DNA of 61,914 nt, the filler included, from Basidiobolus ranarum (Eukaryota), in NCBI GenBank assembly GCA_040143965.1. It is 22 parts of 22 records of this genome, joined end to end, with 100 filler letters (N's around TTAATTAATTAA, not from the genome) between each part and the next. Parts side by side here need not be neighbours in the genome. Positions count along the whole stretch, not along the records: positions 1 to 2,729 come from JASJQH010003027.1; 21 more parts are not named here. One strand, given 5' to 3'. Positions 1,107 to 56,294 of this stretch are shown here, in pieces. Both the position numbers and the translations under genes were made by a program. Within the stretch, counting starts at the first letter, position 1. Each line of letters begins with the position of its first letter. The notes below the pieces were generated by a model, which had not been told where the DNA came from, did not search any database, and saw nothing but the letters and a program-made list of their open reading frames with translations.

Positions 1107-1798
1107 TTACCCCTTTAAGACCATGAAGGGAGTCAAGTTGGTGTACAGGGATTTAAGTTGTTTAGTGATTTGGTTGTCAAGAGAGGTGATTAACTCGTTG
1201 ATATGGGTTAGGCCATCGAAAGTAATTTTGATAGTGGATGTGTCAGAATTAAAGATAATATTGTCATCAGAGATATATTTTTTGGAGAGGACAGATTTAA
1301 GTTTGGTAGAGAAGGTATCTTCGGTGAAGAGATAACATCTTGAGTGGGGTGAGGAGTCTATTTTGATGGGAATGTGTTTTTTGTCAAATGAATTGGAGTG
1401 TTTCTTTACTGAATTTAAGATCACACCAAAGGCGAGGTCGATTTTTTACATTTTGTCGAGGCCCAGAGCTCGTAAGTTGGAGGTGGTATCAAGTACGTGG
1501 AAAACACCTGTGCGTAAGACGGAGACGTTTAAGTTGCCAAAGGTGGAGATGTTATCGATGATAATGTTATAGTTTATGTCGTTGACAAGTTTTTAGAGGA
1601 AAGGGATTTCGGTAGAGGAGAGGAGTAGATGTTTGAACGGTAAATTGTTGAGTAAGAGGGGGTTGGGAATGTGAGGAGAAAGTATGAGATCAGACACAAC
1701 GTCGAGAGGGGAGAGATGTGTTGGAGGTTTGGGGAAAAGGAGTTACAGAGGTCGAGGATAGCATTATAAGAGGAGTAAAGACGGGCAGGTTCGTGTAA
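1107..1798 (-). pseudogene. mutS: Internal fragment of a MutS7-type (giant-virus-like) mismatch-repair gene, lever/clamp region, pseudogenised
   Basis: Hand translation gives LHEPARLYSSYNAILDLCN (1798-1742), a frameshift, then HLLLSSTEIPFL*KLVNDINYNIIIDN. These match the MutS at 39515-41140 at 15/19 and 15/27 residues. The frame continues (NLNVSVLRTGVFHVLD...IKIDSSPHSRCYLFT...TIKITFDGLTHINELI) into ORF 1107-1424. In-frame TAA at 1593-1595 and 1446-1448. Same C-rich/G-poor coding strand as contig 39515-42230. The downstream end of homology is approximate. Confidence 0.85.
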
Positions 1799-2587
1799 TT
1801 TAGCCCACCTACCAACTAGCAGCTTTTCAACTGATCCATAATTAATCTAATCAAGACAAACATACTTTCATTTCAACATAAACTATGTTCTTGTGTTTAA
1901 GAGCATAACCACATACTTTTTAAGGCATAAAAAGCATTGAAGTATGAACGGGGGTTCGAAGTACCAACTAAAGAAGTCTATATGAATAAACGATAATTTT
2001 ACTTCTTTGAAAGCAATCTTCAACCAATTGAATTACTTGAGTGCTAGATACAAATTTTTTGATTATATACGTATGATAACGATTGATGTACTAAATTTTC
2101 ACCACTTCAATTCCTTACATGCAAAAATAGAAATGGGAAGTGTTTGAAACCTTTACGCAGACTGCCATATACCGGTCGTGAATGGGAATCAAAAGTCATT
2201 ATAATAGTATTGCTGTAAGAAAAGAAGAAAATCATCGATCTAAAGCTTCTGAATGTATTTACTGCTTATCACTAAGATATCTCACATACGATTATTAGAG
2301 GTAATCAGAATCATCTTAGATATTAGGCGTGCGGGCTAAATGATCGAGTTAACTAACAAAGAGGTTACAAATGACTCCAATACCACAAGTAGTAACCTTA
2401 ATGTAAAAATATAGATCCGAACTGGGTAAGCTAAATATTTTTTATTAAATCCATGAGCATTAATTAACTATCAATAATCGTAATTTCTAGGCGTTGGATA
2501 TCTTTATGTACGCAGTAATTCTCGTATATATATATATATGTATAATTCAAGTGATCAGCATTACAAACATGATCCTTGACAAGGGGT

Positions 2588-2729
2588 TTAGTTGCACTCG
2601 GCAATGACTGACTTCATGGCAGTAATGGCCATATCCATCTTCTTCTCTTCAGCAGCATTGAGCTTAATATCCATGATTTGCTCAACTCCATTAGCTCCCA
2701 AGACAGCGGGCATGGAGGCATAGACACCA
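2588..2729 (-). CDS. L-lactate/malate dehydrogenase, C-terminal fragment (5' part beyond the contig end)
   Basis: Translates as GVYASMPAVLGANGVEQIMDIKLNAAEEKKMDMAITAMKSVIAECN*. The SxPxVLGxNGVE...L...E pattern is the LDH/MDH C-terminus. Stop TAA at 2590-2588. Codon usage resembles RPL16. Confidence 0.75.
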
Positions 2730-2829: not shown

Positions 2830-3590
2830 GATGAGGAAGGAGAGACAACAGGAGCCATATTACTTTGTTGTAGTCTTTCCAACAACTGGTTGTCACACTT
2901 AACTGCCAGATGGATTGCATCAGTCAAGGTCACTGGGTCAGCCATATTGAGTAAAAGATCCTTAATATCTTCTTGGAGTCCATATTGAAATTGGTTGATC
3001 AGCGCAGATTCTCCCCAATTGATAGCACAAGCAAGAAGGTGGAATTCTACAGTATAAGTTGATGCAGTCTTTGATCCTTGTTTGAGTGGATGGAGCTTGG
3101 TGGCTGAAGTTCTTTCCTTACCTGCATTTCCAAATGTGGCTTTGAGTTCAGCAAGAAAAGCAAGGAAGGTTGAAGGAAGTGGAGACTTACTCTCCATGAA
3201 AGAACCAAACAAAACTAGAGCTGTTCCTGATAATAGTGTTCCCACTATGCCTACTTTTTTTTGGTCAGTGGAGTAGTCATAGGGATGTTCCTGGATGATC
3301 AGTTTACTTAATTCATAAAAACACCATAGTGTTGGCAAGTGCCATCAAACTTATTTAGTAAGAAGATCTTGTGTTCAGGAGTTGGATTTGCAGGATAGTT
3401 GCATGGAGCTGGATTCAGTACATGAGCAAGAGAACCACAAAGTTCTTTATTTTCTTGCTGAAGCTGAGTAAGAACTTGCATGATATTGCCCATGGTGGGG
3501 GCTGGTGTAGATATAATACTTACTATGATGGGAGCTTTAACAAAAATAAAATTGATTTGATCCAGATTGGATCCACTCTTCGGAATCACA
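2830..3590 (-). mobile_element. Ty3/Gypsy gag remnant (retrotransposon gag, PEG10-like), frameshifted
   Basis: ORFs 3308-3589 and 2778-3338 join into PEHKIFLLNKFDGT.../KVGIVGTLLSGTAL...LKQGSKTASTYTVEF...QFQYGLQEDIKD, which are typical Gypsy capsid motifs. Confidence 0.85.
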
Positions 3591-6025: not shown

Positions 6026-6731
6026 ATGAGCACTTTCGAAAAGGTTAATATACTATTCTGATTTATTGGAAATGTTAATGCGATGGATGGCACATCATTC
6101 ATTTAGGATATAATGAGCTGACAATTTCCATTTTTATTAGGTTGTTGTTATCGATGCCAGAGGTCATCTCCTCGGTCGTCTTGCTTCTATCATCTCCAAG
6201 CAAATTCTTACCGGTCAAAAGGTTGTCGTTGTCCGTTGCGAGGAATTGAACGTTACTGGTTCTTTCTTCAGAAACAAGATTAAGTACCACGCTTTCCTCC
6301 GCAAGCGTTGTCTTGTTAACCCTTCCAAGGGTCCCTATCATTTCCGTGCTCCTTCCCGTATCCTCTGGCGTACTATCCGCGGTATGATTCCCCACAAGAC
6401 TGCTCGTGGTAATGCCGCCATGGAACGCCTCAAGCTCTTCGAAGGTATTCCTCCTCCTTATGATACCATGAAGCGTATGGTTGTTCCTTCCGCTCTCCGT
6501 GTCCTCCGTCTCAAGCCTGGTCGCAAGTTCACCACCTTGAACCGTTTGAGTCGCGAAGTCGGCTGGAAGTACGACGATGTTGTCAAGACTCTCGAAGAGA
6601 AGCGCAAGGTCAAGTCCAAGGCTTACTACGAACGCAAGAAGGCCATTCTCAACTTGAAGAACAAGGCCTCTGCCGCCAAGGCCGAAGAATTGAAGAGCAT
6701 CAACGAGTCTATGGCTGCTTATGGTTACTAA
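6026..6731 (+). CDS. RPL16: 60S ribosomal protein L16 (uL13/L13a); exons 6026-6043 and 6141-6731
   Basis: ATG AGC ACT TTC GAA AAG, then a 97-nt GT..AG intron (6044-6140) with a CTGAC branch-point-like motif, then [16 protein letters not shown]...[21 protein letters not shown]...AYGY*. 202 aa. Confidence 0.98.
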
Positions 6732-7373
6732 GTTTTCCGCACTTGTCTTCAATAATAAATAATAAATTAAATCCGTTTCAATCAACAATCACTGACCATA
6801 TAACTCACAACTAATATTGAATATTTGCTATGGTAGCATGAATAGAGTACTGTATACTGAATAAGATTCTTCAGGTACTCATTCCCATCCTCTAGATTTA
6901 CTTCGTTTCCAGATAGACAGTGATAGCTTACTGTTTCTCAGTAGTCGCTCTCCAAAATCTCTTGATATTTATAGCAAAAAAGTGAGCAGAGTTGTGCATT
7001 TTTGGTATCTACTCAGCTTTCCTCTCACTATATGCGTCTGGTACATCTTCTTGTAGACCTTTGGAGGCATGTCAATATAGTGCTCCCTCCAAAACAGATT
7101 TAAAAGTTTTCTCCGTCTAAGCATTTCCGGCTTCATTTCATTTATCTTTCTATTGTATTCACTAGTATATACCATTTATAATCACCATAATTGATGCAAA
7201 TAGGATTATCAATAGTTCAATTAGGTTTCTTAAATTTATAACCAGATGCAAAATCTATATTATGTTAGGCTGTCGCAAATCACTTGGATTTTTTCATCCT
7301 CATTAGAACGATTCCTTGTCTTATTTCCTTCAGTCTAATAATAAGCTCAAGTAAACAAATGTTTTGGACTTGA

Positions 7374-18586: not shown

Positions 18587-18864
18587 TGTTGGATAATTAA
18601 TCTTTATTCAACATCATAGTTAACTTTAGTTATGATACATATATCAGAAACAGAAAGCAACATGTCTATAGCCCCTATATTCTAAATAGGAATATCTCAA
18701 TATCTATATAACAAGTCTGTCTTATTACCCCCACTTATCTATTATATCTTACTACACAAACTCCTGAATATATCAAACAATTGATTTACTTTTCTACTAT
18801 ATAAGTCACCATATACTCTCAAGAATAAAGTAACTAAAACACACTATCATAAGTTGCTTCTAAT
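18587..18864 (+). mobile_element. Putative LTR, family C
   Basis: Starts TGTTGGATAATTAATC and is nearly identical to 36492-36598. Right end uncertain. Confidence 0.55.
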
Positions 18865-19782
18865 AGTCAAAGTCTACCCCCATTATGTCAAGATCCTCCA
18901 ACTGACAAAAGTCAGCATGCAGATGAAACAAAACCTACAAGAGCATGTTGTTCTCAAAATGGCCAATCAGAAAAGAGTATATTGAAATGTTACAAAGGTG
19001 GAAAAATGGGACATTATTGCAAATCAAAAAAGAAATGGGTTTCAAAGAAAACAGAAGCATAAAACACCATTAATAGAAGAAATTGAAGCTATATACTTAG
19101 GTCAACCTTTGCATTAGGAATTGACTCTGCTGATATATGGAATTAGGTGTCATGAATCTGATCTTGGCATACTGATCCACTGCAAATGGAACTCTTCTAT
19201 TATAAGATTATGACATCATATCTGCTGTGCCATCCTTTTGCAGCAATCTTGTGCTAGTTCATCCAGGTTACCTTATATGGAAGTCATGTTCTTAGGAACA
19301 TTTCATGAAACCTAACCAATCATGTCATCCCACATATAGTATATACCTGCCAAGATCTTTCATGGAAGGTGACCTGATCATCCTTACATCATCCCTCTTT
19401 GCATTGGTCTTTATGGTCCCCAACACCCCAACAGTTGAACTTGCCACAGTATATTCCCTATTCAGCATATTATGTTTCACCCTGCAATATCTATATAAGC
19501 TCCCTGCTTCCCTTGATCAGACTGCAGTCTGATCAACACCAGTTGTCAATAAAGATTCTTGACAAAGTATCTTCCCTGTTCAGTCTTGTCATGCCTTGCC
19601 TTGTGGTCTACAGCCTAGTACCCTCCTGCTTTCTAGCCTCTTGTCTCTGTTTCCAGTCCTTTTCTAGTTTCTCATAGTGACANNNNNNNNNNNNNNNNNN
19701 NNNNNNNNNNNNNNNNNNNNNNNNNNTTAATTAATTAANNNNNNNNNNNNNNNNNNNNNNNNNNNNNNNNNNNNNNNNNNNN

Positions 19783-31169: not shown

Positions 31170-32660
31170 AACTCCTATCATGAAAACCTTTGCAATTGGG
31201 ATCTCTTCATAATCCACCAACCACAATATTGCATTTGTGTAATGTTAAGAAGCTGCAGAATTAATATATCAGGTCTGAAAATCCTTGTTGGTAGTCATAA
31301 AAAGAGCAGATATGAACTAGTGATCTTCTAGTTTAACCACATTTCCAGATTTGGCACATTTTTCTTCTTTTGCAATTCTTTTGGTGCAATCTTGGCTTAA
31401 ATGGCTAGTTCTGTTCTGGTAATCACAGAATGGGTCACTTTTCTTCTCAAAGTGCTTTTGACCTTCATAAGATGATTTCCTGGTTCCTCATCACCTATTA
31501 GAGCATTTTCTGCACTCTTTTGGTTAGGTCCCATTTTGCATAAATCTTCATCCAGAAGTCTGCAAATACTTAATGAACTTGTTCTCTGAGCTAGTGCCAG
31601 ATTGTCCTGTTTATACCATATTGGATAAAGCATTGCAAAATTTATGCAGCACAATTTGACATTATCTAGTACCCTCTGGTATGATCAATTTCAATCACAT
31701 TTACTCAAATATATTGATCCAAGGTCCAATAAATCCAGGCACAAAGGAAGAAGCCCAACAAGGCCAAATTTTCAGTTCTTGATTCTAGAGCCATTACTAG
31801 GCTCTGAAACTTGTGTGGCATGCTACTCAGAACTGTAACAATGATATCTTGTTTAGTGGTAGGAGCTCCAATGCATTCCATTTCTTCCAATGAAATAGTG
31901 ACTCTATTAATCAGTCATTCAGTTTCTTCTGCTGGCTTCATCTTGAAGTTAAGGGATTGTGTTCCTAGAAACATTGTGTTGGCAGCAGAACTTGTTTCAT
32001 AGGTGTCTTCTAAGGCTTTCCATATCTTCTTGGCAGTTTTGGCTCTTGAACATTGAAATAGCAATTTGTCTTCAACATTAAGACAAATTGTGTTACAGTC
32101 ACTTTGTTCTTTTTTAACCTGGATTAAAACTTTGGTTTCAGATAGTTTTGCATTGTTTTCTTCTCCTACAACAGTGCCTCAAAGTACTGTTTCTTGCAGC
32201 ATCATTTTCATCCAACTTGATAATTGGTTCCATGCAATTTTCAAAAGAGGGAAAAGTTTCAGAAGTTTGGGAAGTAAACATTATAGAGAGTGCAAGCTTG
32301 GGGCTCCTAACATGGTAAAGTGCTTTGGAGTCTGTGAGGAATGGTTTGGAAAATTGGAGAAATTGGTGGTTTTCACTTATTGATTTATTGAGTAGAACAT
32401 TGACATTTGTGGTTTTGTCAAAATGTAAGCACAATAACATGTAAAATGTGTTATGGAAGGTCCCAGGAACATATGTGCAGAGTTTGGGGCTTCTAACACA
32501 AGTTTGAAAAATCTATATATCTGAGAGCTTCAAAGTTGGTAAAATATTTCTAGAAAATTCCAATTGAGAAGAGAAGATAATATCTTAATCAATTGTAAGA
32601 TAACTGAGTACTAAGCTATACATGACTATATAGGTGCTTAGGCAATGCTGATTTTGAAAA
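31170..32660 (-). mobile_element. Copia family B 5' end: LTR (32313-32660), PBS, gag and start of protease, decayed
   Basis: LTR-B is followed by a GTTAGGAGCCCCAAGCT PBS variant, then ENFSPFENCMEP / AKKIWKALEDTYET / IGAPTTKQDIIVTVLSSMP. Confidence 0.85.
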
Positions 32661-33781: not shown

Positions 33782-36151
33782 NNNNNNNNNNNNNNNNNNN
33801 NNNNNNNNNNNNNNNNNNNNNNNNNTTAATTAATTAANNNNNNNNNNNNNNNNNNNNNNNNNNNNNNNNNNNNNNNNNNNNCAGATGCAAATGTAATATA
33901 TAAGTATAATCGGCCAACATGCATTCCAGCAAGGGGTAAAACCTGGTAATCGCAAATGGGCTTCGTCACAGGTCACTCTTCATGGTCATGCCAATCTTGA
34001 CGAAGTGACTTTGGCGCGGTACTGCGTGATTTCAATCTCACCATTGAATGGTTTACTGCCGCAGACAATGTCGTACAATAGGAGTCTCTTATGAAACGCT
34101 TTGATATGGCACCATCTATTCCTCTCAGGGGGCCTTTTGCTGTACATACAGATCTAGTTCCATGGCTGCTTTACTGTTTCTAAGGCCAAGTCTATTAGAT
34201 ATCAGCCAGCACCCCTGAAATTAGTTGCGTTGTGCCTGTAAAGGACTCTGTGTTTTACTATATCCTGAATATTTGTCAGACGATAGTCTTCAAGTTTCTT
34301 GCTTACCTATCTCTCACTCGAGATTGTTGATATGCCAGTTCAGCTGTTCAGTCTAGAGGAACGATCGAAGTCTCTGTCCTCAGGCTAAACGCCTAGAATT
34401 TTGCCATGAAGCTGATGCAGTGCAATTTATTGGTGTTATTAAGAATACCAGTTTAGCCCGGCTCTGGTAGAACCAAATATTGGTAGCGAACATTCGATCG
34501 ATATCAGATATGTATATAATGTAAATTTCGATCAGACCTGAACAAGTTGGTGATGAGAATTGCCTTAGTGATATCCAGGTTTATTACGTATCTGAAAAGC
34601 AAAGCATGAGCTTCCCCATTAAGATCTAGTGGTTTGTGATCAAAGCTAAGGGTGGTTACCATTGGTTGCTGTATTTTTGTTTCAGTCATAGAATCGAGTA
34701 ATTAGTAGGATCGTAGGCTGATCGCCTGCGGGACACCTTATGGAGCACCTGAGAAATATAAGGAAGCCTCTCCATCAATTCGAGTCTGGGCTTCGTGTAT
34801 TATCAATTATACACACCTCACTTTTGGGATACAAAGAAACAAGTTCGACAGCCATGTCTTTGCTCGCAATATCTGTTTACAAATCAAAATCAGTGGTAAC
34901 TAAGCGTACCGATTTCTTTTAATGATGCCGCAGGAACCTATTGAATCATCTAGTAATGGCTAAAAATTGAGGTTCGCCCAAATAATTACCGGTACTATAT
35001 GCGCAGTTCTCCCACTCCTTCCCATTCTCTACACCACCATGTCATCTCCTTGATACCTTCTGGTTTTAACCCCTTTTATCAGCATCATAATGATTGCCTG
35101 GCGCTTATCGGTCTTGGTTTTAGCACAACCTCAGCCATCCATTGAAGTATACCCAAAAGTCTCATTTGTGTAACAAGGATTGTCACTGTTTGTGGCCATT
35201 ACTCATTATTGGTGAGTATTTTTTTACGGTGACTGATGTGAAGGGCTTAGCTTTTTTGTTCTTGTGAAGTACGTATTCAGAGTTACCCACTTTATGTACA
35301 GCGGAGCTGCTATTTCAACATATTATAAGGCCATTCAGCGAGTTCTTTACAATACTTCATAGTTATACATGCCAGGTATCGTAGGTGTTAAGAGTATCTT
35401 TACAGTTTATTAAGCAATTCTCACGAAGTTGCTTTTAGCGACTATTTTAGAATACTCACTGCACTATTTCTATTTTGTGCGATCATCTTGTTACCGATGT
35501 ATTACTCCTGTAGTACCATTTGGGTACAAAGTGGCATCCCAAGCTATTTGAGTAATCATATAACCGTTTTAGATTACATATTGATTTGTGAACAGTCAAA
35601 GTGTTTTTAAGTAACTAGTAATGTCACTTAACTTCGCTGAAAAAGGGGTTCAGTAGCTTCTTGTCTAAGGGCCAGATTGTTCGGAAATTCTGGTAAACAG
35701 AATACATTCAAACTATAGCGACATACTTGGTGTAAGAGAGAGGCAAAAGTTGGTGTTGTTCATTGAACTTGAGTATATTCAACCGAATCTATGATCGTTT
35801 TGTATTTAAACAATATTTCTTACTTTCAGAGCGGTTGCACTTACCACTGCTCTAAATAAAACATTATCTGGGCTCTTTTTGGATATACTGTTAAAACAGA
35901 TTGATCACCTTCATTGATTCAAGTTCAGTCTCTGATTAGATTTAGAGGAAGGCGTTTGTAGGTGTAGAAATGAGCAAACCTGATGGATTGTGTAGGCAAT
36001 CTCAATAGGAGGCCAGTATGTATAATCCATTTTTGACTACAATGGTGAAGGTAGAAAAAACACAGAAGCATTTAATCTTTGGGGGAAACTGATGATGCAA
36101 TATATGCCAGCCCATGTTGAGTGATAAGAATAGTAGTGTGTATGTTAAAGC

Positions 36152-36598
36152 TGTTGAAGTATTTGAGAGCCTGTTGGAAGTGGTTTGGAGAATTAGAGAA
36201 AATGGTGGTTTTCACTTGTTGATTCATTGAGTAGAAAGTTGACATTTATAGTTTTGTCAAGATGTAAACAAACTAACGTGTAGAATTTGTTAAGGAAGGT
36301 CTCAGGAACATATGTGCAAAGTTTGGGCTTCTAGCACAAGTTTGAAAAATCTATATATCTGAGAAATTGAAAGTTGGTAAAAATATTCTAAGTAAATTCC
36401 AGTGGAGAATAATGGATAATATCTTAGTGAAATGTAACATAATTAAGTACTAAGCTATATATGACTATATAGGTGTTTCAACAATACTAATTGTTGGATA
36501 ATTAATCTTTATTCAACATCATAGTTAACTTTAGTTATGATACATATATCAGAAACAGAAAGCAACGTATCTATAGCCCCTATATTCTAAATAGGAAT
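36152..36598. mobile_element. LTR-B (36152-36491, -) cut by LTR-C (36492-36598, +)
   Basis: Direct homology to 52682-53029 and 18587-18693. Confidence 0.8.
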
Positions 36599-36698: not shown

Positions 36699-37760
36699 TA
36701 CAAGTTAGGTTTAAGAGAAATACAAAATAATTAGTTGAGTGGAATGTTGAAATTAGGTAAATAGCAACTCATTGTATTGTAGTTAGTTTATTCATATTCT
36801 GAATATTAAGCACTCAATTCTGTCATTCATAAACATATGGTTATTGCTCTAATAGATAGAAATATCAATTAAATCACTTTTACCAATTTTCACTATTTTC
36901 TCAAAACTTCTTCAAATCACCTCAAATTTTCACCCATGCTTAAAAGGCATGTTTGTTACAATCTAAGCACAAGCAATGGTCCTATTTTATAGTAAACTAT
37001 AAATAGGACATATTCAATTCATTAAAACTTAAGTGTCTAATTTACAAATTCAAATCTTGTCCAAAACACTTCCAAATCCCCTAAACACTATTATCATTCC
37101 TTTGGCTCTATGTTGTCTCCTGTAACAAATCCCCAAGGGTCATTGTCTTCTAGCTCCATTTGCATCTTGAACTTCCAAAGGTGAAATTCTTCACCATCAA
37201 ACTTCTCTGTGGATGCAAAAACTTTGGTAATAGTACTGGTAGACATTCCTTTAACAGCCAGCTTGGGGCTCATAACCCAATAAAAGTGTTAAGGGGATTT
37301 TGAAGTGTATTGGACAAGATTTAAATTTGAGAATTAGACACTTGTGTTTTATTGAATTGAATATGTCCTATTTAGAGTTTACTATGAAGTAGGACTATTT
37401 GACCAGCTTAGATCATAATAAACATGCCTGTTAAGCATGGGTGAATATTTGAGGTGATTTGGAGAAGATTTGAGAAAATAGTGTATTGGTAAAAGTGATC
37501 TAATTGACATTTCTATCAATTAGAGCAATAAACACATGTTTTTGAATGGCAGAATTGAGTGCTAAATAATCAGAGTATGAATAAACCAACTACTGAACAA
37601 TGAGTTGCTATTCACTTATTTTCTACACTAAGCATGTCCAATAGTACTACTTCATAGTGAGCTATAATAGGATGTATTCAAATCAATAAAACTTAAGTGG
37701 CCAATTCACAAATCCAAATCTTGTCTAAAACACTTCCAAATTCCATAAGCACTTTTGTCA
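36699..37760. mobile_element. Family A LTR cluster: 3' LTR (36745-37096, +), gag start plus PBS (37097-37277, -), 5' LTR (37278-37627, -), partial LTR (37628-37760, +)
   Basis: PPT GTTGAGTGGAA precedes 36745. The reverse strand reads GGTTATGAGCCCCAAGCT and MSPKLAVKGMSTSTITKVFASTEKFDGEEFHLWKFKM. Confidence 0.85.
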
Positions 37761-39514: not shown

Positions 39515-41140
39515 ATTATCGATAATAAAGGTATGATTTATGTCGGCAACGAATTTTTTGAGAAGGGATATTTTGTGGGGGGATAATAGGATATGTTGTA
39601 GAGAAGATTTTTTGCGAGGAGGGGGGTTGGAAGTTTCGTCAGACGAAAAAGATTTAGGATTGGGAGTTTCATCAAACGAAAAAATTTTGGGATTGGAAGT
39701 TTCATCAAACGAAAAAGTTTTAGAATCGGAAGGTTCATCAAGTGACAAAGATTGTAAATTAAGAATGGCATCAGATGAAAAAGATTTAGAATTGGAAGTT
39801 TCATCAAGTGAAGAAAAGGTTGGGATAAGAAGATTGCATAGATCTAATATAGCTACGTAAGAAGTATACAGACGAACGAGTTCGTGCAAAGTTAAAACTT
39901 CTAAAAGGAGTCTGCGGTGGAGTCGTTCTAAGTCGGCGATATTGGCTAAAAGGCGTTCGAAGGTTTTAACAGAGGAGTCGAAAAGGGAACCGAATTCATC
40001 TAATTGGCGAAAGCGGTGTTCTAATTTATGAGGATTGGTGATGGGGGAGAGCAATCGTTTCTTAAGGAGTCGTTTACCCATTTTGGTGGAACAAAGATCT
40101 ATAATGTCGAGTAAACATTGGGTTGGATTGGATTTAAAAGTTTTGTTGGCAGATCTGGGTTTGGAGAAATGGACGAGATCTAGTTGGTCTATGGTATTGG
40201 TAGCTAAGATGAGGTGATCAGAGGGGAGGAAGATTTCTGGGCGAGATATTTTGCGGACAAGCATGGGATTGTGGAGATAAAGGAATTCTATAAGAAGGAC
40301 GTAACTGGTGAGGGAATAAGGTTGGCGTTCAAGATCTAAGAGTTCTATATTGGAGAGCATGGTTTTGTTGGGGAAGATGTTGCCTAAGATTTCGTTCTGG
40401 TAGTTGAGTTGGAGAGCTTTAGGGGTAGCGTCTATGTAATGGGAGAGGATATCATTGGAATATAATTCTAAGTAGGAGATAAGATCCATAGATTTGAGAA
40501 GATCCAAGGATTTGGGGGCAGAACAGAAGACGACTTCACGTGGGTGATATTGCTTGAGGAAGGAGAGGATATGATCGAGAGATAGGCGATTATCTTCAGG
40601 GGTAGAGTAAGATTCGAAGACAACATTTTTGCCGGTGACGACATCGATGGCACTAATACCGATGTGGAGATAGGAGTTGTCGGTATCAGAGAGGGATTTT
40701 TTATTGGTGTCAAAGAATAGGAGGGCGAGATAATTTCGGGAGACGAGGGGTTCTTCAAGGTCGACATAGGTGGAGGGGCTGATAATATTGGAGACTTCAC
40801 GGGTAATATTGGGAGGGGTACCTTTTTGGTCGATGATGACGAGGGTATAGTTGTGTTCGAGTAGGAAGGGGATGTATTTTTTAAGGGCGACACAGGGGAA
40901 ACCGACGAGCAAGGGGTTAGTACGATTATTCGAGGAAATTTTTTTATTTTTTTTGGTGAGGACAATGTTTAGGATGTCGGAGATATCGGCTGGGTTGCCA
41001 ATTTTTTCGGTATTATTGTCGACGCCGTAAATTTCGTAGAAGCTGCCGACTTGGATAAGAACAACGAGTTGTTTGCCATATTGTTGTTCATAGATTTTAA
41101 TAAAATTAAAATAGTCGTTGACAACGGATTCTTTACTCAT
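39515..41140 (-). CDS. mutS: MutS7-type DNA mismatch repair protein (giant-virus/NCLDV-like), domains I-III, 3' truncated by the contig end
   Basis: ATG at 41140 (the ORF track starts at an upstream TTG). Intronless open frame. Domain I: LIQVGSFYEIYG (Phe-X-Glu kept), LNIVLTKKNK, PLLVGFP, REVSNIISPST. Connector: IGISAIDVVTG..PREVV. Core: CSTKMGKRLLKKRLLSP, IADLERLHRRL. The LNIxLTKKNK...GFP pattern is what I recognise from MutS7 rather than eukaryotic MSH1-6. ATPase and HNH domains are not in the contig. Confidence 0.9.
39617..39814 (-). repeat. Coding minisatellite, six 33-bp (11-aa) units inside MutS
   Basis: SSLDETSNSKS / FSSDAILNLQS / LSLDEPSDSKT / FSFDETSNPKI / FSFDETPNPKS / FSSDETSNPPP. 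Confidence 0.9.
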
Positions 41141-41365
41141 GTTCAATATATAAGGGCGAGGATTGGTAGAGAACCAATTTAATCTGGATGGGAGGGGGAG
41201 AGGTTTAAGAATGCAGGGGATATGTTGTGGGTAAATGGGGGTGGAATGATTAAGTTTTAAAAAGTTTGGGTGTAGGGTTGTTGCGGATGGGGTGTGTAGG
41301 GAGGGGTGATACGATGGGGAGGTAAGAGGAGCGAATTTGTATTGGTTTGGGGAAATGATAAAGTA

Positions 41366-42076
41366 TTACGGGGGAGTATTTGGGCGAGTTTCACATTCAA
41401 GTACGAATTTGGCACTATAAGAGAAGACTTCTAGGCAGGTACAGACTTTATGTTTGACGCCAATAGATCGGAGGGTGGGTGCATTTTCGCGTGAGACATA
41501 AGCGACGTGGTTGTTATCGACTAGGACTTGGATTGCGTTAGGGTCATGAGGGTTATTATTTTCTTCTAGGAGTGTAATTTTATCGCCGACAGAAAAGGAG
41601 TGGTTGCCACGGTATTTCATGCCGACAACGATAAATGTATATTTGTCGGAGTTAAGTTTGGAATTTCTGAGGTTAATTATTTGACCACTATTATCGACGA
41701 TATTTTGCGAGATAAGTGTTTGGAAAGATTTCCAATAAGATTTGGGATCAAACGTTGTCATGTTGTCGAGACAGGTGTTATAGTCAGTGAACCATTTGCT
41801 AGTATAGGAGGTGGGATTGTCGGAGTTGTTGTTTAGGACTTGAATTATAAATTTGTATATAGTGCCATCTACGTATTTGGGATCAAAGTCTAGGTTGTTA
41901 TTTATAAGGAAATTAATGTCGTTGGGGCTTAGTATTTTACTTTCGGAGTGGTTAACAAGACCAACGACAAGATTGGAATCGTTGTTTTTGAGGACGTGCC
42001 AACCGTTTAGGACTAAGTTTGTACAATAGGAATAGTCTTTAGAGTTGGGATGAGGTTTCCATTTTTTGGCAAGCAT
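41366..42076 (-). CDS. HIRAN-domain protein (C-terminal HIRAN, unknown N-terminus), virus-like, 236 aa
   Basis: FIVVGMKYRG....GDKITLLEENNNPHDPNAIQVLV....VAYVSRE is the HIRAN pattern (NxxDxNAIxV, G/AYV). Intronless, complete ATG to TAA, co-oriented with MutS and 225 bp from it. Confidence 0.85.
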   Translation of the reverse strand: MLAKKWKPHPNSKDYSYCTNLVLNGWHVLKNNDSNLVVGLVNHSESKILSPNDINFLINNNLDFDPKYVDGTIYKFIIQVLNNNSDNPTSYTSKWFTDYNTCLDNMTTFDPKSYWKSFQTLISQNIVDNSGQIINLRNSKLNSDKYTFIVVGMKYRGNHSFSVGDKITLLEENNNPHDPNAIQVLVDNNHVAYVSRENAPTLRSIGVKHKVCTCLEVFSYSAKFVLECETRPNTPP

Positions 42077-42330
42077 AATAAAATAATATTATTTCGAATA
42101 AATAGGGGGGTGAAATTAGGATGAATCAAAACTTTATTGGTTGCGAAGGTTTAGGGGGGGGTGATGTACAAAAGGATGGTATTGTGAGGGAAATATTTAA
42201 AAATGGTTGTAGATAAGATTTAAAGTAAGANNNNNNNNNNNNNNNNNNNNNNNNNNNNNNNNNNNNNNNNNNNNTTAATTAATTAANNNNNNNNNNNNNN
42301 NNNNNNNNNNNNNNNNNNNNNNNNNNNNNN

Positions 42331-48590: not shown

Positions 48591-50481
48591 TGTAGATTGT
48601 AAAAGTGCTTGAGGAGTATTTAGAAAAGTATGAAAGGAAAAATGCAGTTAATGTATGCAGCAAGTTGCTTCAACAGAAGAACATTCAACTTGACATTCAG
48701 GCTGATGTTGACTGTGCTAATATCTGGGAAGAACTTAACACAGACTGACACAATATTGCAAGGTATCTGCCATATTGCTGGAAATTGTTTATTTGGGAAT
48801 GTTAATACAATGGTGGGCTTTGATGGATAGATGAATATAAACTTGCATTAGATATGAGCCAAACCATGGGCATGAAGAACTCTATAAAAATATTCAGGAG
48901 AATATATCAAAGAAACCAGGGATTTTGAAGGTGACAAGTTGGTGTTCATGTGGTAAATGTGGACCAGGTACACCAGTTGGAAGAGTCCATATTTGGAAGT
49001 TTATCCAATACCCGGCTTCTCTCAACAAGCCCAAACACTAACAAATCAAACTGATGGCTCTCCAACCTCAACTGATACTTTTCACAGGGTTGATATTAGC
49101 TGCAAACTTAAAGACAAGCAAAAAGCCATATAACTACCACAAGGCATGCTCAGTAGTGTCACACTACAAGGAGGTATAAAAATTGTAAAAGTGCTTGAGG
49201 AGTATTTTCAAAAGTAGGAAGGGAAAAATGAAGTGCAAGAATGCAGTAAGTGGCTTTGACAGAAGAACATTCAACCTGACATTCAGTCTGGTGTTGACCA
49301 TGCAGATATCTGGGAAGAACTTAGTACATAGTGACACAATGTTGCAGGGTATCCACCAGATAGCTGGAAGTTATAAAAGTGTTTAGGGTATTTGGAAGTG
49401 TTTTGGACAAGATTTGGATTAGTGAATTAGACACTTGAGCTTTATTAAATTGAAAATGTCCCATTTGCAATTTACCATAAATAGGACTATTGGACATGCT
49501 TGGATCATAACAAACATGCCTGTTAAGTATGGGTGAAAATTTGAGATGGTTTGGAGAAGTTTCAAGAAGATAGTGAAATTGATAATAGTGTTCTGATTGA
49601 TGTTTCTACATATTAGAGTATATTGATAAATCTGAAATAATAGGGGATAAGAATAATAGTGTGAAATGATTGGCTTGAAAATATGGGTAAGTTAAGTATG
49701 GATAACAAAATAGAAATTGTGCAATAGTAATGATATGAGCTTGGAGTGGAAATAAGTCAACCTGCCAGAGGGTAGCAATGCTGCCCTACTACAATGGCTC
49801 TCCAACCTCAACTGGTACTTTTGAAAGTGTTGCAATTAGCCCCAAAGGTAAAGGCAAGCAAAAAGCCACACAAACACCATAAAGCACCCTCAGTAGTGTC
49901 ACACTTCACAAACAAACAAAAATAGTCAAAGTGCTTGAGGAGTATTTTGAAAAGTATGAGGGGAAAAAAGCAGCGCAAGTATGCAGAATGTGGCTTAAGA
50001 AGAAGAACATTCAACTTGACATTCAGTCTGGTGTTGACCATGCAGATATCTGGAAGAACTTAATACAGAGTGCCACAATATTGCAGGGTATCTGCCAGAT
50101 TGCTGGAAGAATGTTGATTCAGCAACATTAATACAATGGTGGGCTTTGATGGAGATATTGATACAAACTTCTGTTGGGTATGGACTAAACCTTAGGTACA
50201 AAGAGCTCTATAAAAACACTCAGGAGAATATATCAAAGAGACTAGGGATTTCAAAGGTGACAAAGTAGCTTTCTAGTGGTAATTGTGTAAAATTTGAGTT
50301 ATGTTTTTTGCACAGGTGTTGATCCATAGTTCTCTGAGATTGTAGCCATTCATGTGCAACTATTTTGCAGGATCAAATCTAACTTGAAAATTGTATAACA
50401 GTAAGTAAATGGTCAATCCCAAATGGATTAAAATTGTGACAGTTTTCCTACAATAATAATCCTTAAATTTTTGTTAGAGGG
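48591..50481 (+). mobile_element. Three partial orphan-ORF element copies, interrupted by partial LTR-A (about 49372-49620, -) and family D (49625-49792)
   Basis: Direct homology to 45715-46534. The last copy ends AAATTTTTGTTAGAGGG. Confidence 0.75.
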
Positions 50482-51266: not shown

Positions 51267-52332
51267 CAAGTGATGCCAAGGATTTGTGGTGATCTGAATA
51301 TAACTCATATTATCTTGATGTATTGGGGTATGATTAACTTGGTAATATTCTAGTTCCTTGAGAAGACTCCTTCGCAATTTAACTTTGGGAACAGCCATAG
51401 AGCTTACCATATAGTCTGCTTCTCTAGTTGAAAATACAACAGTTTGTTGTTTCTTAAACACATATCTAGTTCTGGACTTAGAGTCTTCTGTATCTTTAGC
51501 CCAGTCCGCATCAGCATATCTTTCCAAAATAAGTGACATGTTGTACTGCTTACTAAATTGAATTCCATGATGTATTGTTCCTTTCAGATAGCATATTATC
51601 TGTTTTGCAGCTATCCAATGTTACATTGCAAGATTTTTCATATATTTGCTTACTATGCTTACTGCTATGGCAATATCAAGTCTAGTCCTAGTTGCTGCAT
51701 ATATGAGACTTCCAACTGCACTACAGTTGAGGATGTGTCTCATGATTTCAATATCTTCAGGGGTCTATGGTTCCATATTCTTAGTGAGTTTCAGCATAAT
51801 AAGTGGATTTAAAGCAGCTTTACATTCTGACACATTGAATTTGTTTAAAATATCTCCAATATATTCTTCTTATGTAATAAAGAGTGCCCAATATTGAAGT
51901 TTGAAATATCTGCACTGCAAGACAATATGCTAGTGATCCAAGATCTTGCATTTCAAACTGGGTAGATAGCCAGGTCTTAGTGTATTTCATCAGATTTGAG
52001 CAATTACTAACTATTATGATATCATCAACATAAAGAGCAATTATGACCTTGGTAGCTTTGATAGTCTTGAAGTGTATGCAGTGATCAGCTATGCTACAAT
52101 GGAAAAGATGTTTCATGAAGATCTGTTTGATTTTGGTATTCCATGCACAAGGAGCCTGTTTTAAACCATATAGACTTCTCTGTAGTTTGCATACTTGATG
52201 TTCTTTTCCTTTTGGAATATATCCCTCTGGTAGATCCATATATATATCTTCATCAATTTCTCCATTAAGAAATGCTGTGTTGACATCCATTTGTTCAATC
52301 AGCATTCCTTGGTGGGTAGCATGGTCAGACAT
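51267..52332 (-). mobile_element. Copia RT and RNase H remnant
   Basis: QMDVNTAFLNG.IDEDIYM, KLQRSLYGLKQA, ALYVDDI, FEMQDLG, YADADWA. Confidence 0.92.
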
Positions 52333-52681
52333 TTCACTTACAGAATGTTTTTAATTTCCACTTGGTAGGATTTCTGAGTCCTGATTGCCTGAATTTTGTG
52401 ATTGATTAAATATTGATTGCAATTGATTGCATACTTCCAATAATTGATTGCATCCAGTTTCAGCCAATTTGAGGTAGAATATTTCTTAGGTATATATCAG
52501 TATGATTGGTCAAAAAACTATTGCCTTGGTCTAAGCCCAAACTCCTGATTCCAGATTGGCTGGAGAGATATCCATTTTCTGTTTACTATATTTTTCATTA
52601 GCAACAATAATATGCTAATTTCCAGAAGCAGGTTCCAAATTATTTGTATCCTCAGAGATATTATCAGGTTTCTGGTATAAA

Positions 52682-54652: not shown

Positions 54653-56294
54653 TGTTAACATATTTGGGAGCCTGTAGGAAGTGGTTTGGAGAATTAGAGG
54701 AATTGGTGGTGTTTACTTGTTCATTTATTGAGTTGAAAGTTAACATTTATAGTTTTGTCAAGATGTAGACAAACTAGCATGTAGAATGCATTAAGGAAGG
54801 TCCCAGCAACATGTCTGCAAATTTGGGACTTCAAGCACAAGTTTAAAAAACTTCTATCACTGAGAATGTCAAAGTTGGAAAAATATTCTAAGTAAATTGC
54901 AATTGAGAATAAGAGATAACATCTTGGTGGAATATAAGATAACTAAGTACTAAGCTATATTAGACTATATAGGTGCTTAGGCAATTCTAATATCAGCACT
55001 CACACTCAACTAAATAGTCATAAAATTAATTCTAAAAAAGGTCTAAATTTCTCAAATTTCTTTCTAGCTAATGGTTTGGTTAATTTATCAGCAATAATGG
55101 CTTCTGTAGTACAATAAGTTAAAACAATAAACTTGTTCCATACAGTCTCTCTAATGAAGTGATGCTTATTAACTACTTGTTTGCTTCTATTATGAAACAT
55201 GGGATTTCTAGCTAATTTGATGCAACTATTATTATCCTGTAATATTGTAGTTGGTGAGTTTTGGGAATAACCTAATTCTGTTAAGAGTTTTATTAACCAT
55301 ATTGCTTCTCTTGTTGCTTCACAGGCAGCTATGTATTCTGCCTCTGTTGTTGAAAGTCCTATGGTGCGTTGTTTCTTTGAATTCCAAGATATAGCTTCAA
55401 TACAGCAAAGAAATGAGTATCCTGTTGTAGATCTCCTGTTGTTGATATTTCTTCCCCAATTTGCATCTGAATATCCATCCAATCAAAGTTTGACCCAGAA
55501 TTTGAGTAATTAAGCACACATCCACAGTATGTTTCAAATATATGAAATCAACTTAACTGCTATGATTTGCTCAGATCCATAATATTGCAGATATTGACAC
55601 ATAACTCCTGCAGAATATGCAAGATCTGGCCATGTTCCAACCATTATATACATCAAACTACCAACCATCTGTTAGTAAGGAAATTTCTGGCTTGTAGTTG
55701 AATCTAAAAGCATCTGATAATAGCCATTTTTGGTCAAGTTATGTTTTGTCTCCATCAGGATAGATACTTAATTACATACTTACATTTTAAACTTCTTTAG
55801 TGTATCTAGGATATAATTTGACAGGCTTGAAGTTATAGTTTTGGTAGTTTCATCTGTCTTGATTTGGATTCCATGATAGTGTGTCAGTTCACCAAGAGCA
55901 GTCATTTTTAATTTGGCAGATAAGCTGGATTTTGTTTTCTCCAAAGTCTTTAAGTCATAGGTTTCTTAAATCAGATCATCTACATAGAAGGTTAATAAAA
56001 CCAAGTTTGGCTTATCTCTCCCAAAGTAGAAACTAAAATCAGCACTATTCTTTTGGAATTTGGGTGTTTCCCAAAAAGTGTCCTTCTTGCTGTTCCAAGT
56101 TCTTGAAGATTGTTTTATGCCATATAGTGTTTTCTGGAGTTGGCAAACTTTTTTAGGGCTTTTTGGGTCTACAAATTCATCTGGCTGGCACATATAGATC
56201 TCCTCTGCAAGCTTGTCATTGAAAAAAACTGTTTTAACTTCCATTTGATATGTAATAAACTGATATATAGCTGAAATTGCTAAAATCAATCTAA
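54653..56294 (-). mobile_element. Copia family B RT, RNase H, PPT and 3' LTR (54653-54998)
   Basis: QMEVKTVF, LQKTLYGIKQS, FYVDDL, GYSDANWG..RRSTTGY, STTEAEYIA, ADKLTKPL. Confidence 0.92.

Follow-up and report, generated by a model that had tools for sequence, protein, structure and literature searches.

A 2.7-kb contig from the fungus Basidiobolus ranarum raises the question of whether DNA of giant-virus type has entered a fungal genome and decayed there or whether such sequences in the assembly are just contamination. The window that we analyzed (61,914 nucleotides, filler included, from assembly GCA_040143965.1) was a slice of a very fragmented assembly, in which 22 contigs sorted by size (2729 to 2710 bp) were joined via 21 N-flanked TTAATTAATTAA linkers. 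Two of these contigs are central here, namely, contig 1 (positions 1 to 2729), which carried a fragment of a MutS7-type gene, and contig 15 (positions 39515 to 42230), which carried the gene used for comparison. The answer that we favored, with a probability of roughly 0.58, is that the contig 1 fragment was a non-functional internal piece of MutS7 (about 0.67 to 0.69 kb) from viral or proviral DNA and that this DNA was captured between genes, at a site about 0.8 kb downstream of a host gene of the lactate dehydrogenase/malate dehydrogenase (LDH/MDH) family.

MutS7-type mismatch-repair genes are a mark of large DNA viruses (Nucleocytoviricota). MutS7 is described in PMC3166940 as having domains I, III, and V and a C-terminal HNH domain. 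An earlier note on this DNA, made from the sequence alone, had reported minus-strand blocks on contig 1 that matched the contig 15 MutS and were broken by one frameshift and two in-frame TAA codons, and all of these were recovered. Specifically, an upstream block (1798 to 1742) was identical at 15 of 19 residues to residues 420 to 438 of the contig 15 MutS (LHELVRLY...LCN), and a second block (1631 to 1551) was identical at 15 of 27 residues to the last 27 residues of the contig 15 open reading frame (ORF), which ended at residue 544. The two blocks were in different minus-strand frames, anchored one base apart at 1828 and 1829. The change of frame fell between 1742 and 1631 (interval 1632 to 1741), which corresponded to the place where contig 15 had an array of 33-bp tandem repeats. 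The main frame of the fragment (1107 to 1700, minus strand) comprised 198 codons of the lever/clamp region (MutS domains III-IV), with a terminal TAA and two internal TAA codons at 1595 to 1593 and 1448 to 1446. Only 2 stops were present in 197 codons of this homologous frame, whereas the other two minus frames contained 10 and 13; thus, it seemed that the homologous frame was open until recently.

When the contig 15 MutS was compared to contig 1 via tblastn, it matched two different minus frames, with 30 of 87 residues (E = 6e-7) and 18 of 43 residues (E = 5e-5) identical, and blastn aligned 56 nt at 76.8% identity (1552 to 1607). The contig 15 protein had 107 longer homologs (about 950 to 1270 aa, most of them 950 to 1100 aa, with scores of up to 382 bits), and a profile hidden Markov model (HMM) built from these full-length proteins matched the fragment at profile positions 432 to 591 of 1009 (29.7 bits, E = 1e-11). 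The match was collinear and began exactly as the continuation of the point at which contig 15 was cut, as had been claimed, and none of the remaining five frames of contig 1 matched the same profile with an E value better than 0.15. The nearest protein was P0163, a full-length MutS7-HNH protein (921 aa) of Basidiobolus meristosporus CBS 931.73. Residues 406 to 535 of P0163 aligned with positions 1523 to 1143 of the minus strand in tblastn, with 59 of 132 residues identical (E = 1e-24). With composition-based statistics, the core of this alignment was 58% identical over 81 aa (E = 5e-21), and the next best E value in that run, among the other 41 proteins queried, was 0.093. In the profile region, intact homologs were 18% identical to one another (5 to 95% range of 12 to 28%), and the fragment had a median identity of 16% to them; therefore, the fragment was within the normal family range for the variable lever/clamp region. 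By descent, the homology was specific to MutS7 and not to other MutS subfamilies.

The fragment covered about codons 415 to 540 of about 920 to 990, plus the 19-residue upstream block. Six-frame and profile scans of contig 1 revealed no domain I, domain V, HNH, or other MutS part beyond it, which agreed with the earlier statement that both ends of the gene were missing. The fragment is therefore spoken of here as a derivative of a MutS7 gene and not as a MutS7 protein. Because it lacked the mismatch-binding domain I, domain V (ATPase and dimerization), and the HNH nuclease, and because its coding sequence was interrupted three times (by two stops and one frameshift), the piece can have no MutS activity and is a dead remnant, truncated on both sides. 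Might it have some other function, as a spliced exon, as a 105-aa clamp protein, or as a regulatory RNA in the LDH/MDH 3' region? The last 105 codons were open and the codon-position pattern was preserved, which are points in favor of this idea. However, two stops and a frameshift had accumulated in 240 codons, the missing domains were found nowhere on contig 1, and tRNA and Rfam scans of the window yielded no match. In the homologous frame, a single listed ORF overlapped the island, namely, the lone 105-aa ORF of the earlier description (1107 to 1424), which began at a GTG inside the homologous region. We consider a remaining function to be extremely improbable.

The fragment coincided with an island of foreign composition. 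A two-change-point fit placed this island of inserted, MutS7-derived DNA (minus strand) at 1125 to 1795, with support intervals of 1114 to 1137 and 1775 to 1806 (2*dlnL = 76.9), and the compositional island in the earlier description was thereby confirmed. The plus strand of 1107 to 1800 contained 31% G and 9% C, compared to 16 to 19% G and 16 to 17% C in the flanks (Fisher p = 8e-14 for the G and C counts). Similarly, plus-strand GC skew was +0.4 to +0.76 over 1101 to 1800 and about 0 in the flanks (-0.5 to +0.45 in 100-nt windows). We also classified the sequence by the log-likelihood ratio of a second-order Markov model trained on contig 15 to a model of the 20 other host contigs. This ratio was +6.8 to +27.3 within the island and ranged from +1.8 down to -38.9 in the flanks, where all windows but one were negative; the ratio peaked at 10.7 when the 20 other host contigs were scanned in 150-nt windows. 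The homology borders (1143 and 1798) and the composition borders agreed within about 30 bp. Immediately beyond both edges the DNA became host-like, and no more viral-type sequence was found there. The left flank (1 to 1106) was host-type, AT-rich DNA that contained no recognizable coding sequence, and the right flank (1807 to 2584), which separated the island from the stop codon of the LDH/MDH gene, was non-coding and also of host type.

The unusual composition of the island was shared with contig 15. At third codon positions, the frequencies of G were 0.03, 0.04, and 0.06 in the contig 15 MutS, the neighboring HIRAN-domain ORF, and the fragment, respectively, and the frequencies of C were 0.41, 0.40, and 0.45; in host genes, G was 0.19 to 0.28. 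Non-coding DNA on contig 15 had the same character, since the sense strand contained 3.7% G and 41% C at 41147 to 41365 and 3.2% G and 28% C at 42077 to 42230. Because the bias was even stronger in this non-coding DNA, it appeared to be a property of the DNA and not of codon choice. Related viral MutS genes lacked the bias, as their third positions were A/T-rich and had about equal G and C. We know of no mutational process that accounts for a gain of C plus a loss of G on one strand. This compositional fingerprint links the fragment and contig 15 as one class of DNA that is set apart from the host.

An LDH/MDH-like gene about 800 bp away, with no linker in between, was also part of the earlier description, and both details were correct. 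Contig 1 was continuous, and no linker separated the island from the last 46 to 47 codons of an LDH/MDH-family gene (2588 to 2729, minus strand), which ran off the contig end. The Pfam family Ldh_1_C matched at 2588 to 2728 (E = 1.9e-7; profile positions 126 to 169 of 174) and was the sole Pfam match in a six-frame scan of the contig. The stop codon was at 2585 to 2587, about 760 to 810 bp from the island. Third positions of this piece were host-like, with G at 13 of 47 (P = 2.6e-8 under the contig 15 rate). Among solved structures, the piece came closest to bacterial malate dehydrogenases and to L-lactate dehydrogenases such as 1oc4_A (E = 5e-7); we took it to be part of the LDH-like MDH group, and the best LDH entries are presumably from Plasmodium. 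The substrate class (lactate or malate) could not be decided because only the last 46 residues were on the contig. When 1.84 billion representatives were searched, 17 weak matches were found, all of them to short fragments with at most 52% identity. Among the 10 matches whose names were looked up, two were named: the best match (52%), which was a partial protein of the zoopagomycete fungus Coemansia sp., and one called "malate dehydrogenase." An Atlas search yielded generic bacterial LDH/MDH clusters only. Thus, the composition of the gene was host-like, its nearest named relative gave a weak indication of fungal origin, and the flanks and the LDH/MDH exon looked like host DNA.

The host itself was examined by using an ORF for a Nup155/170-type nucleoporin on contig 11 (28247 to 30820, 857 codons). 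Its product was 67% identical to a protein named B. ranarum and 62% identical to one named B. meristosporus, and the next relatives were from chytrids and Mucorales (32 to 36% identity). Judging from these nucleoporin relatives and from the contig 15 MutS, which was identical to a protein named B. ranarum, the source organism was a fungus of the Basidiobolus group. The nucleoporin named B. ranarum was 75.8% identical to the B. meristosporus one, yet it was just 67% identical to the ORF in the window; this pattern suggested that the assembly holds an old paralog, a second subgenome, or a second organism.

These observations bear on the idea that contig 1 is an assembly chimera or a contaminant, in which a MutS7 piece from free viral or virus-like DNA was never joined to the LDH/MDH gene. 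The contigs are about 2.7 kb long in a highly fragmented assembly, contig 15 broke inside its MutS gene beside a tandem repeat, and the 67% nucleoporin match indicated that diverged paralogs or more than one genome may be present, all of which make a false join easier to imagine. Nevertheless, two false joins, some 680 bp from each other, would be required for a chimera, and the piece between them has its own stops and frameshift; moreover, an intact virus would not have a gene that is truncated at both ends. In addition, the junction sequences were not low-complexity, contig 1 had no repeat in common with the other 21 contigs in a comparison across the window, and the gene family was present on a 33-kb contig in a second Basidiobolus species. 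We therefore regard a chimera or contaminant as decidedly unlikely, and physical linkage of the fragment to the LDH/MDH gene, in nuclear DNA, as probable.

The contig 15 gene (39515 to 41146, minus strand) consisted of the intact N-terminal 544 codons of a MutS7, with Pfam MutS_I and MutS_III (domains I and III), and was cut by the contig end. Over 415 residues, its product was 100% identical to K7432_016808, a hypothetical protein of B. ranarum, and it was 77% identical to P0163, the gene for which was located on the 33-kb contig of B. meristosporus that carries K493DRAFT_362925. The domain I Phe-x-Glu motif was retained (F36 and E38). The consensus of the relatives ended in a Cys/His HNH motif, and the closest relatives carried MutS_I, MutS_III, and MutS_V. 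In P0163, precomputed Pfam assignments included domains I, III, and V, and the HNH columns were C844, C847, H862, H863, N886, H895, and H899; Pfam HNH was above threshold in P0002, P0003, L161, and L162. The parent lineage of the fragment (the contig 15 gene and its ortholog) therefore had the MutS7 domain order of I-III-V plus a C-terminal HNH. A place among eukaryotic MSH1 to MSH6 did not fit these proteins. Among solved structures, the best scores against the contig 15 MutS were 37 bits for Thermus MutS, 29 bits for Escherichia coli MutS, and 26 bits (25.8) for human MSH6. The ortholog had an HNH domain, and the fragment matched no MutS or MSH structure at E <= 10 (the sole match was a spurious one to a DENN-domain structure, E = 0.35).

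Directly upstream of the MutS7 gene and on the same strand was an ORF of 236 aa (41366 to 42076, minus strand) with a C-terminal HIRAN domain (Pfam, E = 1.7e-8). The spacing between the two ORFs was 219 bp, and the contig 15 genes were densely packed with no sign of introns. HIRAN and MutS7 may be a two-gene DNA-damage module. A pattern scan of IMG/VR found no relative of the HIRAN ORF, and the Atlas scores of 0.85 are taken as a lead only. The 33-bp tandem repeat was in frame within the contig 15 MutS ORF (39627 to 39807; 5.5 copies, 76% matches), encoded SFDETSNPK-like units between domain III and the clamp region, and was absent from contig 1 and P0163. A mitochondrial origin of contig 15 was also considered and set aside: its GC content of 40% was above the host average, the ortholog was on a 33-kb contig, and tryptophan was encoded by TGG (in the HIRAN ORF, for all four tryptophans). 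The GC content and the TGG tryptophans, together with the general features of fungal mitochondrial DNA, disfavored a mitochondrial location. A Mimivirus-type early promoter octamer was rejected as a marker, with 8 matches in the window compared to 10.6 expected and 0 on contig 15.

The contig 15 gene and P0163 also appeared to be under selection. The two proteins were identical at 69 of 71 conserved columns and at 129 of 174 variable columns (p = 9e-6), and at columns conserved at 90% or more both kept the family residue in nearly all cases (26 of 28 and 83 of 86). Since the differences avoided conserved columns, purifying selection in two Basidiobolus species was indicated. This finding suggested another origin for the fragment, in which a MutS7 gene was acquired from a giant virus by a common ancestor of B. 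ranarum and B. meristosporus, was domesticated, and was inherited vertically, and the fragment is a dead partial duplicate of that gene, made by ectopic recombination or repair rather than directly from viral DNA. Support for this idea came from the full-length MutS7-HNH gene on a 33-kb contig in B. meristosporus, whose 77% identity to the contig 15 protein was about equal to that of the nucleoporin orthologs of the two named species (75.8%), from the purifying selection itself, and from the fact that the fragment was nearest to Basidiobolus proteins among all those tested. In contrast, a gene that had been nuclear since before speciation should approach the composition of the host, where G is about equal to C, and the unconstrained sites of contig 15 were far from it (3 to 4% G in intergenic DNA and 3% at third positions). 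The dense packing, the 219-bp gap, and the lack of any sign of introns also argued against a long-resident fungal gene. We consider a domesticated source to be unlikely, and we prefer a viral or proviral one.

We then asked where the lineage belongs among MutS7 proteins. In IMG/VR, 462 of 598 candidate stretches encoded MutS7 relatives; many of the 80 that were kept were named GVMAG, and two of the records were longer than 1 Mb. Trees were inferred with FastTree (73 rows) and an IQ-TREE quick search (35 rows), using 4 to 7 bacterial MutS1 proteins as the outgroup. The contig 15 protein, P0163, and the fragment formed one clade (SH-aLRT 100), in which the fragment grouped with P0163 (SH-aLRT 98); because so few alignment columns are covered by both the fragment and contig 15, little weight can be placed on this internal order. 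The sister of the Basidiobolus clade was a group of environmental proteins (16 rows in the FastTree tree; 11 rows, including L161, in the IQ-TREE tree). Together, the two clades fell inside a group that contained all of the IMG/VR giant-virus sequences, and MutS1 lay beyond the longest branch. The position in a clade with Basidiobolus MutS7 and far from MutS1, along with the missing match to solved MSH structures, supported the earlier assignment to MutS7 rather than to a normal eukaryotic MSH.

Two contigs provided gene context for the sister clade. On L161 (IMG/VR, 51.7 kb), the neighbors of a MutS7 with the order I-III-IV-V-HNH were a ResIII/DEAD helicase, an ORF for RNA polymerase Rpb1, and a DUF5757 protein. 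On L162 (metagenome, 15.6 kb), a family B DNA polymerase was encoded 7 kb from the MutS7, among ORFs that had no Pfam match. The polymerase gene (9980 to 13120 of L162) carried an intein-splicing domain. Based on the trees and this gene context, a large-DNA-virus origin of the MutS7 lineage is probable and well supported. The implied donor in the earlier note, a virus of the Imitervirales, was not established because the clade branched apart from the megabase-sized viral records.

Basidiobolus is known for many bacterial gene transfers, and a bacterial rather than giant-virus origin of its MutS7 family, fragment included, was also weighed. P0046, a member of the wider clade, was labeled as a bacterial metagenome-assembled genome (MAG), and the LDH/MDH piece also resembled bacterial-type enzymes. 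MutS7 is, moreover, described as common to epsilonproteobacteria, nucleocytoplasmic large DNA viruses (NCLDVs), and octocoral mitochondria in the accounts of PMC3166940 and PMC6163669. To compare the two sources, we searched 185,579 prokaryotic species, with one genome each, and confirmed 573 of 575 pattern-matched stretches. The best 80 of these 573 were only 23 to 31% identical (best E = 4e-47), although the patterns may miss epsilonproteobacterial MutS7, whereas viral and environmental contigs reached 46 to 50%. The neighbors on L161 and L162 (an intein-bearing family B DNA polymerase, RNA polymerase Rpb1, and a helicase, among ORFans) were also at odds with a bacterial source, which we judge to be very unlikely.

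The results suggested the following sequence of events. A small piece of DNA from a giant virus or provirus associated with Basidiobolus would have been captured in an intergenic region, in a manner like that at repaired double-strand breaks (compare nuclear copies of mitochondrial DNA [NUMTs]), and would have drifted slightly since. Because host-like composition resumed no more than about 30 bp from either border, the data fit the capture of a small fragment better than the erosion of a large provirus at this site. Thus, the proposal in the earlier note that viral DNA entered this fungal genome and decayed was partly sustained: the dead fragment, the host-type flanks, and the viral context of the sister contigs agreed with it, and a decayed whole provirus at this locus was less well favored. 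With so few lesions and an uneroded codon-position pattern, the insertion is likely to be young; by a very rough estimate of ours, two stops in about 240 codons presumably correspond to a few percent of neutral change.

The contig 15 copy was not the immediate source, since identity in the overlap was low and the 33-bp array of contig 15 was missing from contig 1. It follows that at least two diverged MutS7 sequences of one compositional class are present in the assembly. Given that an intact MutS7-HNH is common to two species, the fragment may derive from a long-associated virus, a long-associated provirus, or a resident gene. A bolder proposal, which we offer as speculative and rather doubtful, is that Basidiobolus, a non-zoosporic fungus, hosts a persistent giant-virus-like provirus or replicon that co-diverges with it and from which pieces pass into nuclear DNA. 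This proposal was based on the intact, selected MutS7 with its adjoining HIRAN ORF at host-like divergence, on the non-host composition, and on the contig 1 fragment. A co-diverging or recently re-integrated virus or provirus would explain both the selection on the intact gene and its odd composition; the alternative is a domesticated gene with a local mutational bias. In a variant of the proposal, the gene may be a domesticated, self-contained mismatch-repair enzyme, by analogy a fungal parallel to the octocoral mtMutS.

Several points weigh against the capture of viral or proviral DNA as set out above. The overlap of the fragment and contig 15 was far from identical (30/87 and 18/43 aa; 56 nt at 77%), and only one of the 107 longer homologs matched contig 1 in tblastn at E <= 0.01 (P0038, E = 0.007). 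Pfam assigned no family to the fragment at E <= 1; because Pfam and single distant queries missed it, the identification depended on a family-specific profile and one Basidiobolus protein. At the island borders, neither repeats (direct or inverted) nor a target-site duplication nor any further sign of insertion was found. Contig 1 was a 2.7-kb contig in a very fragmented assembly, in which a chimera is possible. The host assignment of the LDH/MDH gene rested on 47 codons with a best named relative that was just 52% identical, and its best solved relatives were L-lactate dehydrogenases and bacterial malate dehydrogenases. The trees comprised no eukaryotic MSH, epsilonproteobacterial, or octocoral reference sequences, and the sister clade consisted mostly of environmental proteins, with gene context from two contigs (L161 and L162).

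The remaining contigs of the window contained eukaryotic-type genes and retrotransposon relics, for example, a ribosomal-protein-like ORF (6141 to 6731) and gag and reverse transcriptase (RT) pieces. The relics were at 2830 to 3338, 51820 to 52350, and 55018 to 55482 and consisted of a Ty3-type gag (Pfam Retrotrans_gag and Ty3_capsid) and two ORFs that by eye resembled copia-type RT/RNase H. Antisense to the ribosomal-protein-like ORF was a 229-aa stop-free frame (6099 to 6788) that was probably a by-product of the codon bias of that gene. Repeats were common to most of the 22 contigs. Five other GC-skew islands (18601 to 18950, 32251 to 32550, 35951 to 36450, 36801 to 37200, and 49351 to 49800) were tried as viral pieces and rejected as host repeat families: their absolute skew was 0.4 to 0.48, they were repeated on many contigs at 70 to 88% identity, and they had neither long ORFs nor similarity to MutS. 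The left flank of contig 1 contained a 97-nt imperfect inverted repeat, with arms at 22 to 118 and 808 to 904 that were 77% complementary and 689 nt apart. This repeat may be a small foldback or MITE-like element, and no copy of it was found on the other 21 contigs.

The location of the fragment between host-type sequences speaks, in silico, against contamination as the only source of the giant-virus-type genes in this assembly, and it adds MutS7 to the virus-derived genes seen in fungi. It also follows that MutS7 matches in fungal or soil data need not indicate a free Imitervirales virus. An intact, selected MutS7-HNH with a G-poor strand may point to a repair enzyme that was captured or else to a virus that persists in a fungus that is terrestrial and has no flagella. 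In our opinion, the conserved and compositionally odd MutS7-HIRAN module of Basidiobolus is more interesting than the fragment that points to it.

Fragments of foreign DNA are inserted at chromosome breaks in NUMT-like capture, and the anatomy of the fragment was similar, with abrupt borders, a short internal piece of a gene, no terminal repeats or target-site duplication, and an intergenic position. The difference is that the donor here was viral-type and not organellar, and the mechanism for the fragment is suggested by its anatomy only. With the MutS7 of giant viruses (Mimiviridae, Nucleocytoviricota), the Basidiobolus lineage shares the architecture of domains I, III, and V plus HNH (P0163, P0001 to P0003, L161, and L162), and PMC6163669 reports the use of MutS7 as a marker gene of Mimiviridae-like viruses. 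Unlike the viral proteins, Basidiobolus and its sister clade formed a separate deep branch that was not nested among the megabase records (L036 and L039), the Basidiobolus coding strand was C-rich and G-poor whereas the viral relatives had A/T-rich third positions, and the contig 1 copy was just a broken clamp/lever piece. A report of MutS7 in a fungus was not found by title or abstract in the MutS7 and Basidiobolus-NCLDV literature that we searched.

Associations between giant-virus DNA and early-diverging fungi are described for a 1.5-Mb region in Rhizophagus irregularis (PMC10640383) and for the Mycodnaviridae of zoosporic fungi (PMC13533422). As presented there, these are long multi-gene regions or active infections, whereas our fragment was a single 0.7-kb piece bounded by host DNA, and the word MutS is absent from the main texts of both papers. 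The octocoral mitochondrial mtMutS, as portrayed in PMC3166940, resembles the Basidiobolus copies in being a MutS7-HNH of non-eukaryotic origin that is kept intact in a eukaryote genome. It differs in that it is mitochondrial and demonstrably expressed, whereas the Basidiobolus copies are known here from sequence.

The closest parallel comes from the genus itself. Gong et al. (2020) described endogenous NCLDV sequences in 15 fungal genomes, including those of B. meristosporus and Basidiobolus heterosporus ("fundsalphavirus"). According to the main text of that paper (PMC7017919), in which MutS does not occur, a DNA polymerase B (PolB) probe was used, an SNF2-type helicase and RNA polymerase subunits were encoded close by, and the authors argued from stops and frameshifts that the sequences were not contamination. 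The gene set near the "fundsalphavirus" PolB, as reported there, resembles the MutS7 neighbors on L161 and L162. Like the fragment on contig 1, the "fundsalphavirus" elements in that account are virus-derived genes with stops and frameshifts in the same genus, and the fragment is an NCLDV-derived pseudogene piece in a genus already known for such fossils.

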